A DNA stretch of 64,000 nucleotides, taken from Octopus vulgaris. Taxonomy: Eukaryota. The notes under the pieces were generated by a model. The model was not told where the DNA came from, made no database searches, and saw only the letters and a program-made list of their open reading frames with translations. Positions 24,450 through 29,322 of this stretch are shown piece by piece. Each line of letters starts with the position of its first letter. Positions within the stretch are counted from its first letter, which is position 1. The position numbers were made by a program, and so were the translations under genes. The stretch covers positions 99,014,001 through 99,078,000 of the forward strand of contig OX597820.1 in the NCBI GenBank assembly GCA_951406725.2, written 5' to 3'.

Positions 24450-24743
24450 ATTATTATTATTATTTTTATTTTTATTTTTATTTTTTATTTTTTATTATAT
24501 ATTTATTTAAATTTTTTTTTAAATATATATAACTATCAAAAAGTATTAAAAAGTTTAATATAAGATAAAAAGTATATACATATATATATACGGTTTAAGC
24601 AATTAAGATTCAAGTGAGTTCTGTTGAATTCACATGAATATGATACTTAACTTGGATGCACCAGAAATCTATATGGTGTTAACCATACGACAAAGTGGGG
24701 TGATTACAAATAAGAAAAAAAGCAACAAGAATGGATCAATATA

Positions 24744-24828
24744 TCGGTACAATTGTTTCGTACGAAGACATCTTTAATAAGGCTACAAAAATTGCAGTAA
24801 ATATAGGTGGCTCGTACTCATCAGCCGA
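24744..24828 (-). ncRNA. minimal type I hammerhead ribozyme in the PLE 3' pseudo-LTR (sense strand)
   Basis: UCGG CUGAUGA GUACGA..long loop..UCGUAC GAAA CAAUUG UA CCGA: 4-bp stem I, 6-bp stem II, palindromic stem III (ACAAUUGU), GUA cleavage triplet. Confidence 0.85.
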
Positions 24829-25702
24829 AAAAACATCCGAGAGTCCCAAACATCAAAGGGGGTAATGTTACACTCGTGAAACATCATGGAAAGTTCTATA
24901 AAAATGAGAATTTAGATAACAAATTGGTTTCTAAGAGTTCAATTAGTATTACACAGTCATATATCAGGTTTTTAAAAGTTTTTTCATAACATCTTAGTTT
25001 TTCAGAAAGTGAAGATAAAAGTGAGGGTGTGAGTTTATCCGAATTGAAGAAAGTTTGATTCCTGGAGATCTGATGAGAGGTATCGTACTCACAGAATATG
25101 TGTTTGTCCATATATAGTTCATAGTAAAGTGTGAATCAAGCTATGTGAAGATATTTTGGATACAATCGTGCGAAATTTCTGAAAACTGCTGTGTTATAAT
25201 CCGAGGAAGAAGCGTAGCGACAGTCTTATAGTGGAGACGAAAAAGCTGCTATAGAAATCTACAAGAACCACAGAGCTAAAGGAAGAATGTAGAATTTGAC
25301 CAACTACTGCTATCAATTGCTATATAAAGAAGAAATGGGAAGATGAAAAGGGGTGTCAAAGGTTGTTACTATAGGAAAACATCTTAGCGTATTTGGTGCA
25401 AAATTTGAACGAAGGTCATTTAATTTATTTCTTTATTTATTAATCTTACTATTAATAGATTGCCAGGTTATGAGGATACAATAAGATGTCAGAAGAAAAG
25501 AAAAGAAAATGGAGTTATTTTCCTAATGAAACCGTTCTATTATAGGTTTGTGATTAGCAGAATTTGTTATTAGTGTAAAAGAACTAATTTCCTATAAGTA
25601 GGTTTACTTAAGATAGACTAAAAATTAGAAAGAAATAATTTAAATTATCTACATAGTCTAATAGAATGAAGAATTAAATCAATTAACTTAAATCAATAAG
25701 TA

Positions 25703-28700
25703 TCACCTAGTACAGTTAGAAAGAGAGTATTTAAGAGTCTTAGTCCTAGCGTGGATACAAGAAAGACCCAGTTCAATCCTGCTGTTCAATAAAATACCAT
25801 TATTTTTTCTATACATTAGTATTTCAAATGTTTCTATGGAGCAAAGTTGACAACCTACTCTGCTATTTTTATAGGGTATCGCTCTTCTAATTAATTCCCA
25901 ATTAAGGTTATATTTGATATTATTGTTTTTTAGTTCCCAAATTTTACTAGAAAGAGTGGTGCTATCAGCTTTATGACGTAATCTGAAAGAGGATAAATGA
26001 TTACTAATTCTTTTTCTAAAATTTACAGTACATCCTAAATAAGTATATTTGTTATTATCTGTGGTTATGGAGCATTTGTAGATTATGTTATTTAACCCGC
26101 ATAAACCAGGCGCCGGGCATTTTGATTTAATTCTGCAGTTACATCTAGGGGGATTATAATTTGATGTGGAATAATTCGAGGATAGAAGTATCATACTACT
26201 GTTACTCGAAACAATACGAGTATATTTTTCATAATTTTGGTTATTGCTGTTATCTAAAATAATGTTATCATTATTGCAGTTAATGTTATTATCTAAAGTA
26301 GTATTATCATTTATCGGTATTCTTACACTATCATTTGGTTCTATAACCTTTCTTTCATTATTAATATTGTTGATGCTGTTAGTATTGTTGTCGGTATTGG
26401 TTTCTAAATGTGTAGTGTTATTGCAGATAACATTGTTGTCTTCATTCACGGTACTTTCATTCTTGGTATTATTCGTATTATTAACATAATTATTCCTATT
26501 TGTGTTATTATTATTATTAGCAATTCTATAGCTATTGGTTATACTTATCATATGATATTCATTATTATCATTGTTGCTATTATTACTTTCAGTAATGTTG
26601 TTACAATTTTCATTTGTATTTTTATTGCTATTGTTTAAATTTTTCCTGGTTAGTTTTATGTTATTATTATTGATCTTGGCTATTAAAGTGGACATATTTG
26701 GGAGGGTTGAATAAGAAATTCTGACCGTTATTTTAGAAATAATTTTATGATATCTATGAGAGGATGGGAAATTCTTTTCTAGAATTGTTTTGAATCTACT
26801 CTGAATATCTGATAAAACCGCACAGTTGAAAGGGATGTTTAGCCATACTATGTCTTTCTTATTAAATTTCTTAGAATTAGAGTTGGGGTTATTTGAATCG
26901 TTCTTACTTTCACCAGATTCTTTGTATTTATTAATGCTCCTATTTGCATGTTTCTTAGTTTTATCAAAGTTTATTTTAACCGTATTACATGTGTTCAGTA
27001 CTATGTTCTTATTATTATTCTTAATTTCATTAGGATATTTTGCCGTTGTAAATCTACTTCTACTATTATTTCTGGCTTGATCCCTATTGTTGTCTACGTT
27101 ACTAATTGTATGCTTCTTAATTTTATCTAAAATTATCTTATCAGGGCTATCCATGTTATGGTCTATGCAATTATCCTTGTTCTTATTACTATTTCGATTA
27201 GATGTTGTATTAAATCTACCTCTACGTATCTTTTCGGCTTGATCGTTTTTGTTGTTTACGTGGTTATTGTTATTTAAATTATTATGAGTTTGTAAGTTTT
27301 CTTTATCAATAAATGTAATTTTTTGGTTATATCCTGCTCTAGATAACGCCTCATTATAATGCTCTGAGTGTGAGTTAAATATATCAAAATTAGACGATAA
27401 TTTGGATATTCTTATGGAAATATTTCTAACTAAAGAATTAATAATATTTGGGGGATGATTAGATAATTTACTTACGTAACTAGTGATTTCACCTTCTTTT
27501 CTAAATGGGTAATGTAGTTTAGAGTTAAGGTCTAATGTAATATCTAGAAAATTGACTATTTTAATGCCTGGTTCATAGGTTATGCTAAGGTTGAAATCTT
27601 TAAAGAACCTATTAATTTTCTTTTTGATTCTTTCTATGTTTGATTTATTATTATTATGGACAATAAACAAAGCATCATCTCTATATAAACCACCTTGCAA
27701 TTCAGGGATCTCATTTTTTATGCATTTTAGTAGATATGCTCCGATTAAGTTGGTCACCTCAGCCGAATCACTGGAGCCCATAGGAATATCGAAATTATTA
27801 GGGGTATACGCTCTGGTCCATAATTTTCCCTCAAACTCAAATGTTTTTCTAGCTAAAAGTACAATGTCTATTTCTTCTCTAGATATGAGGGAGCGATTCA
27901 TCGCGAATATAAGCGATTTATTTAGTAGAATAGGGGAAATTCTAGAGTAATAGTTGTTTGTGTCGAATTGGATGAAGGCTAGATTATTGGTATTAGTTAG
28001 GGAGTTAAACCATTTAAGTACCTCATCGGTATTTATCTATAGGCTTGAGGGAAGAAGTGGGGTTATTTGGGGTAAAACATTATCAAGGATAGATTTACTA
28101 AGTCGGCCAATATCCGACTTAGTTGGACAAATAAGCCTTACCGACGGGTTTTCTAAGAAATTCCTTTTGTGGTCCTTGAGATTAATCCTTGGTTCGCACG
28201 GTACAATCGGTTCAGTTCTGTCTGTTAGATCATATCTCTCCATAATAGCTTTCATTTCTAGGTTTGTTTCTTTTAAGTTTCTCTTAGTAGTAGTTTTGTA
28301 TTTGGAGTTAAGCTCCTTCTTAATTAGATTGCTGTAGAGTGTATAGTCTACTCTATAAAGATTACCAGTTTTATCAGCTGGTACTAGTATTCCTTGCTTG
28401 TTCCGGGTCGATTTGATAAATTTACTGAGATGCTTGAGGTGGTGGTTGTACCTTAACGGGTGTTCCTTGAACTTAATCCCTTCTATGAGGTTTAGTAGAT
28501 CCTTTTCAAAATTTTCTAGTAGTGCGTTCGGAGGTGGACTCTTTCTGCTTCTAAATATTCTGTCGAAATTCTTATCAGTATTCCTTACTTGAGTATTCTT
28601 TTTCTGCTTGATATCGAAGTGATATGTTCTCCATCTAATTCTTCTAATGAAGTCATTTATCCTATGAATAAGTAGCCAATAATATTCATCCTTACTGTGG

Positions 28701-28744
28701 AGGGGGATGTCTTTAGGGGAAAATTCGATGTTTATTTTTTCCAT
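25703..28744 (-). pseudogene. PLE polyprotein (RT, Asn-rich linker, C-terminal GIY-YIG), ~1013 codons with one in-frame TAG at 28037-28039
   Basis: Track ORFs 28037..28810 and 25703..27901 share a frame: ...SSL*INTDEVLKWF..FIQFDTNNYYSRI. Motifs: SPKDIP, RRIRWR, PADKTGN, RLICP.KSDIG, FDIPMGS, LYRDD, NFLDITLDL, SNHPP, CNCRIKSKC, IIYKC...YLG, NHLSSF, CQLC, CIH. Confidence 0.9.
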
Positions 28745-29206
28745 TCTTGCTGAGAAGTTAAGTACCGGAAAAACATACAGACAGTATGGGAATATATTCG
28801 GTTTAAGCAATTAAGATTCAAGTGAGTTCTATTGAATTTACATGAATATGGTACTTAACTTGGATGCACCAGAAATCTATATGGTGTTAACCATACGACA
28901 AAGTGGGGTGATTACAAATAGGAAAAAAAAACACATATTCTGTGAGTACGATACCTCTCATCAGATCTCCAGGAATCAAACTTTCTTCGATACGGATAAA
29001 CTCACACCCTCACTTTTATCTTCACTTTCTGAAAAACTAAGATGTTATGAAAAAACTTTTTAAAAACCTGATATATGACTGTGTAATACTAATTGAACTC
29101 TTAGAAACCAATTTGTTATCTAAATTCTCATTTTTATAGAACTTTCCATGATGTTTCACGAGTGTAACATTACCCCCTTTGATGTTTGGGAATCTCGGAT
29201 GATTTT

Positions 29207-29291
29207 TCGGCTGATGAGTACGAGCCACCTATATTTACTGCAATTTTTGTAGCCTTATTAAAGATGTCTTCGTACGAAACAATTGTACCGA
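29207..29291 (+). ncRNA. minimal hammerhead ribozyme in the inverted pseudo-LTR
   Basis: tcgg ctgatga gtacga...tcgtac gaaa caattg ta ccga, read directly on the + strand. Confidence 0.85.
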
Positions 29292-29322
29292 TATATTGAT
29301 CCATTCTTGTTGCTTTTTTTTC

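Follow-up and report, generated by a model that had tools for sequence, protein, structure and literature searches.

A young, dead copy of a Hydra-type Penelope-like element with two asparagine-rich inserts in a (TA)n tract of Octopus vulgaris DNA

Can a single in-frame stop codon hide an otherwise functional transposable element? The question is raised by a locus in a 64,000-nucleotide stretch of Octopus vulgaris DNA (contig OX597820.1), which in its entirety is termed the window here. A preliminary description placed a near-intact Penelope-like element (PLE) of the Hydra clade at 24591..29322, concealed by one TAG codon. The span is broadly correct, except that base 29322 belongs to the probable target-site duplication. 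The element is a young, dead genomic copy of a Hydra-type PLE. Very probably a 4.2-kb unit carrying two asparagine (Asn)-rich inserts entered an octopus (TA)n tract by target-primed reverse transcription a few million years (My) ago, and was then inactivated by point mutations that include the TAG. The features are as follows, with all positions in the window.

5654..5800, plus strand: solo 147-nucleotide (nt) copy of the 3′ end of the family, ~96% identical, with a (TA)n tract on either side; begins 3-9 nt downstream of the predicted ribozyme cut
24579..24591, minus strand: probable 12-13-nt target-site duplication, 3′ copy, inside a TA microsatellite, with the same G-(TA)n-G register at both ends
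24591..25702, minus strand: 3′ untranslated region (UTR), 1112 nt; the hammerhead begins ~880 nt past the stop codon
24744..24828, minus strand: putative type-I hammerhead in sense orientation, with a 44-nt loop II; cleavage predicted between 24748 and 24747, at 157 nt from the 3′ end
25703..26146, minus strand: CxCx5C linker and GIY-YIG endonuclease (R912, H916, E971, N987, CxxC, CxH), amino acids (aa) ~867-1013; predicted local distance difference test (pLDDT) mostly >85
26159..26662, minus strand: Asn-rich insert 2, aa 695-862, 35% Asn, with a 39-nt tandem duplication
26663..26854, minus strand: conserved post-thumb subdomain (WxNxP ... RISYS), aa 631-694
26855..27307, minus strand: Asn-rich insert 1, aa 480-630, 25% Asn, with a 162-nt (54-codon) tandem duplication
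27308..28744, minus strand: N-terminal region (RWR, DKT, DHK), reverse transcriptase (RT) core (D261, YRDD 354-357) and thumb, aa 1-479
28037..28039, minus strand: in-frame TAG (codon 236) at a column where relatives have Trp
28745..28798, minus strand: 5′ UTR, 54 nt, opening with an AT-rich junction
28799..28929, minus strand: sense pseudo-long terminal repeat (pseudo-LTR), which repeats the final 131 nt of the element in direct orientation at 97% identity; unit length 4208 nt
28929..29321, plus strand: inverted piece, a copy of 3′ UTR 25105-24715, 98.7% identical, with an intact hammerhead motif at 29207-29291
29322..29394, minus strand: probable target duplication, 5′ copy (29334-29322), and (TA)n flank

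The coding region is one minus-strand frame that runs from the ATG at 28744 to the stop codon at 25705-25703, comprising 1013 codons with no frameshift. Its sole internal stop is the TAG at 28039-28037, which lies between SL and INTDEVLKWF, so that across 3 kb the frame is broken by a one-base lesion only. On shuffling the bases 300 times the best of the six frames still contained at least 44 stops. Trp occupies the column of codon 236 in 116 of the 129 homologous proteins that cover it (from 180 homologs), and in 9/9 published Hydra rows. Because gene calling conceals stops, we also read the column from DNA in 77 related loci, obtained from an alignment-based metagenome scan (alignment A5) in which 363 of 604 candidates were confirmed. 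Trp was found in 76, Arg in one and a stop in none. These loci are only 33-43% identical, and therefore none belongs to the family of the window element. A scan with a single protein as query gave no relatives among 397 candidates, and an exact look-up of four window translations in a protein collection matched none of them. The description of a single frame of ~1013 codons, broken by one TAG where Trp is expected, is thus correct. Catalytic residues D261, DD 356-357, R912, H916, E971 and N987 are all intact.

The stop is not the only lesion. An in-frame deletion of one codon near residue 304 reduces the ARK..W spacer to 8 residues, which is unique among 74 pattern-matched proteins (9 residues in 66, 10 in 7). 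At two conserved RT sites the copy has T262, where 139 of 142 homologs have I or V, and R268, where S is present in 130 of 144. The copy is therefore not hidden by the stop alone, and the proposal that the stop by itself conceals a functional element is not supported. The frame has neither a second stop nor a frameshift, but it has lost a codon.

The duplicated ends of the element differ by 8 substitutions in 508 columns, a decay of 0.8% per copy that supports a young copy. Using the solo 3′ copy as a third sequence, each of the four differences in the pseudo-LTR is private to one copy. Decay to this extent predicts ~24 substitutions and 0.6-1.0 stops in the open reading frame (ORF; 95% range 0.3-2.0), so one stop is the expected outcome. 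The TAG is likely to have arisen by ordinary neutral decay and is unremarkable, and in itself it is of no importance. G-to-A hypermutation was rejected, since the seven other TGG codons are intact.

What kind of PLE is this? The Hydra clade is defined, in the available part of PMC8557442 (Craig et al. 2021), by RWK and DKT motifs, a divergent RT4(B), no insertion-in-fingers, a CxCx5C linker, no CCHH, the presence of CxxC and CxH, hammerheads and (TA)n targets. The window element has the general features of a PLE, i.e. a single ORF with RT and GIY-YIG endonuclease, a pseudo-LTR in the form of a partial tandem with an adjacent inverted piece, and a hammerhead motif in the terminal repeat region. 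It appears to be of Hydra type, as all the published Hydra-clade sequence motifs tested are present. The RWK-type motif is RIRWR at 35-39, with no GxKF/Y (among 78 homologs, 36 have K and 28 have R at position 39), and 124-126 is DKT, not DKG. Hydra-type patterns for RT4(B) and the GLYRDD motif C match at 318 and 352; the canonical patterns match none of 181 proteins. There are no extra residues between motifs A and B in comparison with homologs, i.e. no insertion-in-fingers. The C-terminal GIY-YIG motifs noted at the outset were all located: CxCx5C at 868-876 (C868/C870/C876), NHxxSF at 915-920, CxxC at 965-968 (C965/C968) and CxH at 996-998 (C996/H998), with IIY (887-889) and YLG (902-904) as the GIY- and YIG-like sequences. 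CCHH is absent; a single Cys (C891, mostly Ala in homologs) lies between GIY and YIG. The full copy and the solo copy are both inserted in (TA)n. On visual comparison with Fig. S7 in the available part of PMC8557442, the protein agrees with the Hydra rows rather than the canonical ones.

Other clades fit less well. Penelope/Poseidon, Neptune and Nematis are disfavoured by the absence of DKG and of a CCHH endonuclease finger, and Naiad/Chlamys (N-terminal endonuclease, CxC domain, DKA, insertion-in-fingers) by the C-terminal endonuclease and DKT. Selenoprotein PLEs (Naiad_Smim and others) have UGA at a conserved Cys together with a selenocysteine insertion sequence (SECIS), and the stop here is UAG at a Trp column; no search for a SECIS was made. 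Searches for homologs gave proteins of ~700 aa that share these motifs and are 30-41% identical, together with Octopus fragments of up to 93% identity. The closest relative is an Octopus sinensis gene model (92-93% identity), in agreement with the suggested cephalopod family and pointing to an octopus as host. There was no Pfam family for the ORFs of the element or for three homologs, apart from one weak unrelated match, and a profile search of PDB sequences gave no matches. In the AlphaFold model the core is confident (mean pLDDT 76.8), with values below 50 only at 508-623 and 720-861, and the inserts are thus predicted to be disordered. Foldseek returned RT folds, with telomerase RTs at six of the top ten ranks; DRT9 nevertheless came first, so the fold search does not discriminate. 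No GIY-YIG structure was among the matches listed for the whole model.

The element shares with the published Hydra clade the RWK-like, DKT and divergent B motifs, the lack of insertion-in-fingers and CCHH, CxCx5C, CxxC and CxH, a hammerhead at the 3′ end, a (TA)n target and a pseudo-LTR with an adjacent inverted piece, but differs in its two Asn-rich inserts, 1.1-kb 3′ UTR and 44-nt hammerhead loop II (PMC8557442, in the part available). It is also larger. Hydra elements tend to be below 3 kb, although this is not a strict criterion. The 14 complete families in the available part of PMC8557442 are 2084-2729 nt long and encode ~700 aa, compared with 4208 nt and 1013 aa here. Among 41 related loci the unit measures 1650-3409 nt, with a median of 2443. 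The excess length results from the two inserts and the long 3′ UTR. Hydra elements were already known from an octopus, Octopus bimaculoides, in that same part of PMC8557442. Hydra-1_Obim likewise has (TA)n insertions, but is 2507 bp long, has no pseudo-LTR recorded in the part available, short spacers at both insert sites and another hammerhead sequence (compared by eye); it is a different family.

The hammerhead motif is present in two identical copies, one in sense in the 3′ UTR (24828-24744, minus strand) and one in the inverted 5′ piece (29207-29291, plus strand). The motif has a CTGATGA...GAAA core, a 4-bp stem I (TCGG/CCGA), a 7-bp stem II, a 44-nt loop II and a palindromic stem III, ACAATTGT. 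The hammerhead with a 4-bp stem I was therefore identified correctly. Our descriptor matched one of 1440 shuffled stretches. Rfam at the gathering threshold missed the hammerhead, its only match in the window being tRNA-like, and the minimum-energy fold of the monomer does not take up this structure (z about −1). Between the core boxes there are 58 nt, compared with 10-25 nt in the 41 related loci. In 40 of these loci the hammerhead lies 54-519 nt from the ORF, and in the remaining one 1105 nt. The length of stem I ranges between 3 and ~10 bp in the published Hydra hammerheads of the available part of the PMC8557442 supplement, and minimal hammerheads with 4-5 bp have been reported in other PLEs. 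Four base pairs in stem I are therefore not diagnostic of Hydra; among the traits cited for the clade, it is the motifs, the hammerhead and the (TA)n target that stand. A further hammerhead suspected at 25035-25125 was rejected. It is an antisense CTGATGA that lacks the GAAA box, and the descriptor matched nothing in the window beyond the two known copies.

The TA flanks lie where they were first placed, with unequal lengths. On the 5′ side there are 36 TA copies (29323-29394), but on the 3′ side just 11 nt of TA precede AT-rich DNA, with a further TA tract at 24399-24445. At the 5′ end the inverted and sense pieces are contiguous in the template, meeting at a U-tract with a 7-nt overlap (24715-24721). 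Within the inverted piece, the end next to the flank corresponds to the more 3′ template position, and the junction has TTT microhomology. In L1 twin priming, which Ostertag and Kazazian reportedly described in 2001, the inverted and sense pieces are said to be contiguous, with junction microhomology and a target duplication. Our element resembles this in polarity and contiguity of the pieces, microhomology and target duplication, but what is inverted here is part of a second 3′ UTR copy located upstream. The template was therefore longer than one unit. The arrangement suggests a twin-priming-like geometry on an RNA exceeding one unit by at least 515 nt, apparently copied through an intact hammerhead. 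A re-ligated circular template would fit equally well (PMC4209133, in the part available). Self-priming on an antisense template is preferred for palindrome-bearing junctions in the available part of PMC3846280 (Arkhipova et al. 2013); by eye no palindrome is evident at our junction.

The only clear parallel in the 77 related loci is L043 (128-281), where an inverted piece lies beside a 37-nt sense pseudo-LTR in the same polarity with a 274-nt gap. In two Hydra-type loci, L017 and L067, units of 2427 and 2405 nt follow one another head to tail as near-perfect tandems, which are either genuine or assembly circles. A profile search of the window found no other PLE. The solo copy at 5654-5800 departs from the full copy in a few bases at its extreme 3′ end. 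Its position beside the cut site bears on whether PLE hammerheads cleave in vivo, but its start also coincides with the first ATATAT microhomology counted from the 3′ end; the two are confounded, and this single case counts only as a lead.

The inserts occupy spacers that are short in most homologs. Spacer 1 (G471-W634, post-thumb) has 164 aa and 24% Asn versus a median length of 28 in 111 homologs, an excess of ~136 aa. Spacer 2 (Y678-C868, pre-linker) has 191 aa and 34% Asn versus a median of 31 in 107 homologs, an excess of ~160 aa. The duplication score of insert 1 was reached by none of 300 codon shuffles, and that of the 39-nt duplication in insert 2 by one of 300. Both units of insert 1 match the single unit of XP_029651259 (0/500 shuffles each), in which the insert is 108 aa long. 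Insert 1 has equal length in O. sinensis XP_036355885, and a homologous insert 2 is present in O. sinensis XP_029636861. The inserts are therefore traits of the family. They contain no stops in the coding frame, versus 9/47 and 14/46 in the other two frames.

The long spacers fall together on the trees, which contain Hydra-type homologs only and no outgroup clade. FastTree was applied to 160 of the 181 proteins (RT core ≥130 aa; P0011 left out), and placed all eight rows with a first spacer >50 aa in one 14-row clade with support 99. IQ-TREE recovered the same long-linker clade from 30 chosen rows (100/97). P0174, with a 76-aa spacer, is in neither tree. The clade consists of the window protein, four Octopus, five Argonauta hians and four other proteins. 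Spacer 1 is graded in length within one subclade, at 27, 64-78, 108, 139 and 164 aa. The value of 139 (P0149) was obtained by pattern, the alignment value of 7 being a misalignment; for P0044 and P0046 the alignment values are 26 and 25, the pattern values of 126 and 175 being mis-hits. It is likely that the inserts grew by internal duplication. Outside the octopod clade P0068 and P0072 have Thr/Pro/Ser-rich spacers of 173 and 252 aa before the CxCx5C linker, with 16% and 6% Asn, so this site tolerates growth generally.

Seven Octopus and Argonauta NCBI gene models (P0011, P0023, P0025, P0027, P0132, P0149 and P0040) are wholly or partly fragments of this PLE subclade, but are named as ankyrin, kinase, GATA-finger or myelin-regulatory proteins. 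Taken with the lack of a Pfam match, this indicates that octopus gene sets hold these elements under wrong names. P0011 joins a PLE N-terminus to ankyrin repeats and a RING-like end, a possible exonisation or an artefact of the model.

How secure is decay as the explanation for the TAG? A sequencing or assembly error, leaving the genomic frame open, would give just such a one-base lesion with no frameshift in 3 kb, and phase shifts in the (AAT)n tract at 19508-21979 are possibly read errors. By simple arithmetic, however, errors predict ~0.01 stops at 1/10,000 bases and ~0.13 at 1/1000, whereas real decay already predicts 0.6-1.0. The unbroken 1315-codon ORF of a non-LTR retrotransposon 6 kb away makes error less likely still, and the other lesions would persist in any case. 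We regard error as improbable, so that of the two origins first offered for the stop, TGG to TAG mutation or a sequencing error, the mutation is retained. Could the TAG instead be family-wide, and corrected by editing? UAG is a favoured ADAR triplet, and editing of UAG to UIG, giving Trp, is known from the hepatitis delta antigen. The affected column is Trp, the local fold pairs the UAG within a short 6-bp helix, and no sister copy covering codon 236 was seen. Coleoid neural tissue recodes heavily, according to the available part of PMC8382921. An octopod long-linker Hydra lineage with an amber codon at a conserved RT Trp would then depend on A-to-I editing to produce an RT-endonuclease, and its mobility would be bound to tissues with much editing, e.g. 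neurons. Yet the local fold is no better than that of shuffles (z −0.34), the window holds no complement >14 nt to the 95 nt around codon 236, and the 392-bp inverted repeat of the element excludes that codon. No related locus has a stop there and no homologous protein ends at residues 215-255, with relatives that are only 33-43% identical. Neutral decay accounts for one stop and further lesions are present, so we think dependence on editing very improbable. Domestication or exonisation, with the host using the locus as an N-terminal and an RT-endonuclease protein or as part of a host gene, might be suggested by the Octopus and Argonauta models that hold subclade pieces, one fused to ankyrin repeats and a RING-like end. 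This is scarcely credible for a young insertion that has a TA target and intact terminal repeats, and whose stop splits the RT ahead of motif A; moreover the gene models break at differing points, with names apparently derived from low-complexity matches.

The origin of the inserts is less settled, and either answer is compatible with a young Hydra-type copy inactivated by decay. They could have been captured from (AAT)n-rich host flanks by single template jumps, as is proposed in the available part of PMC3846280 for inserts of 460-554 aa with 25-30% Asn in Adineta vaga. The window is (AAT)n-rich, and AAT is the main Asn codon of the inserts. Graded lengths of spacer 1 inside one subclade speak for stepwise growth, the step from 108 to 164 aa being one 54-codon duplication, and elsewhere in the window both inserts match only low-complexity tracts. 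Single-jump capture is thus the less likely origin, while still deserving some weight, and there may have been an initial capture followed by duplication. Several points weigh against the account of a recent Hydra-type insertion that then decayed. Membership of the Hydra clade is read from motifs and alignment. The majority residue is absent at 31 of 154 conserved columns, more than in 34 of 35 full-length homologs; many of these departures are common to subclade relatives (P0037 has 28, P0039 has 23), and decay and family traits are thus only partly separable. There is no family paralogue spanning codon 236, as the four closest Octopus gene models begin after the codon or skip it. The 12-13-nt TA target duplication brackets the whole insertion, but in low-complexity DNA where it could arise by chance. 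The pairing proposed for second-strand priming is weak, at 5/7 positions by eye. Lastly, the age of ~2.2 My (0.9-4.3), calculated with the rate quoted in PMC13282606, assumes that both repeats were identical when inserted.

On the anatomy, motifs, homologies and duplications observed directly, we propose how active members may have inserted. The RT-endonuclease protein would bind a longer-than-unit RNA and its GIY-YIG domain would nick (TA)n DNA, with cDNA synthesis beginning at the fixed 3′ end. The cDNA would cover one unit and continue for at least 131 nt into the upstream repeat, generating the pseudo-LTR. The second target strand would prime internally at the U-tract of the same RNA, copy 392 nt through the uncut hammerhead and join the first cDNA at the TTT microhomology, giving the inverted piece. 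The inserts would act as predicted disordered tethers on either side of the small post-thumb subdomain, having stayed in frame in active lineages while lengthening stepwise by tandem duplication. The 5′-end geometry would fit the in-vitro behaviour of PAc, the Poseidon element of Anolis carolinensis (Frangieh et al. 2024, PMC11167929, in the part available), which cuts as well as extends both target strands and accepts uncleaved RNA, its hammerhead being dispensable for insertion. PAc also has an RT with a C-terminal GIY-YIG and an AT-rich target, but it belongs to another clade, its hammerhead overlaps the start of the ORF, and it has a 30-40-nt tail where our copy shows none (same part of PMC11167929).

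Asn-rich in-frame inserts are described as peculiar to rotifer Penelope/Poseidon elements in the available part of PMC3846280, where those of Adineta vaga (Pen2a/Pen3/Pen4) are attributed to capture by template jumps. Like the window element, these have in-frame inserts of 25-30% Asn in the PLE ORF, direct and inverted pseudo-LTRs, short target duplications and copies with a single in-frame stop; they differ in having one insert of 460-554 aa each rather than two of ~150 aa, against which the octopod inserts show graded lengths and tandem duplications (same part of PMC3846280). As the A. vaga elements belong to the Penelope/Poseidon group, the octopod inserts have an independent origin. Our literature search, which covered few subscription papers and neither Repbase nor Dfam, found no report of long-linker Hydra elements in cephalopods, and for other Asn-rich PLE inserts only PMC3846280 and a meeting report. 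The O. vulgaris repeat library of PMC13282606 has 190 PLE families, with 'Hydra' mentioned nowhere in its text and supplement, and may hold the window family unnamed. The novelty is modest, and lies in the linkers, the 1.1-kb 3′ UTR, the long hammerhead loop and an insertion geometry that can be read. With an independent case from a distant clade, in which lengths are graded and duplications can be seen, octopod genomes become a place to test how Asn-rich inserts arise. The 5′ end, a single case, offers genomic support for the two-strand extension seen in vitro, on a longer-than-unit template through an uncut hammerhead. The side results are of some use to PLE specialists.

The window contains other repeats. 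The 1315-codon ORF (RVT_1, zf-RVT) at 15339-19286 on the plus strand is followed by a long (AAT)n tract, the 2.5-kb array with phase shifts at 19508-21979. This non-LTR element, which we take to be of Dong/R4 type, may be an intact young copy, and decayed pieces related to it lie at 21974-23476. Just outside the PLE, at 29718-30019, two 87-nt arms that are 99% complementary and 128 nt apart resemble a miniature inverted-repeat transposable element. The tRNA-like match at 9908-9974 on the minus strand is just over the Rfam threshold, and is probably the head of a short interspersed nuclear element. A separate repeat of ~420 nt is present in many copies across the window.

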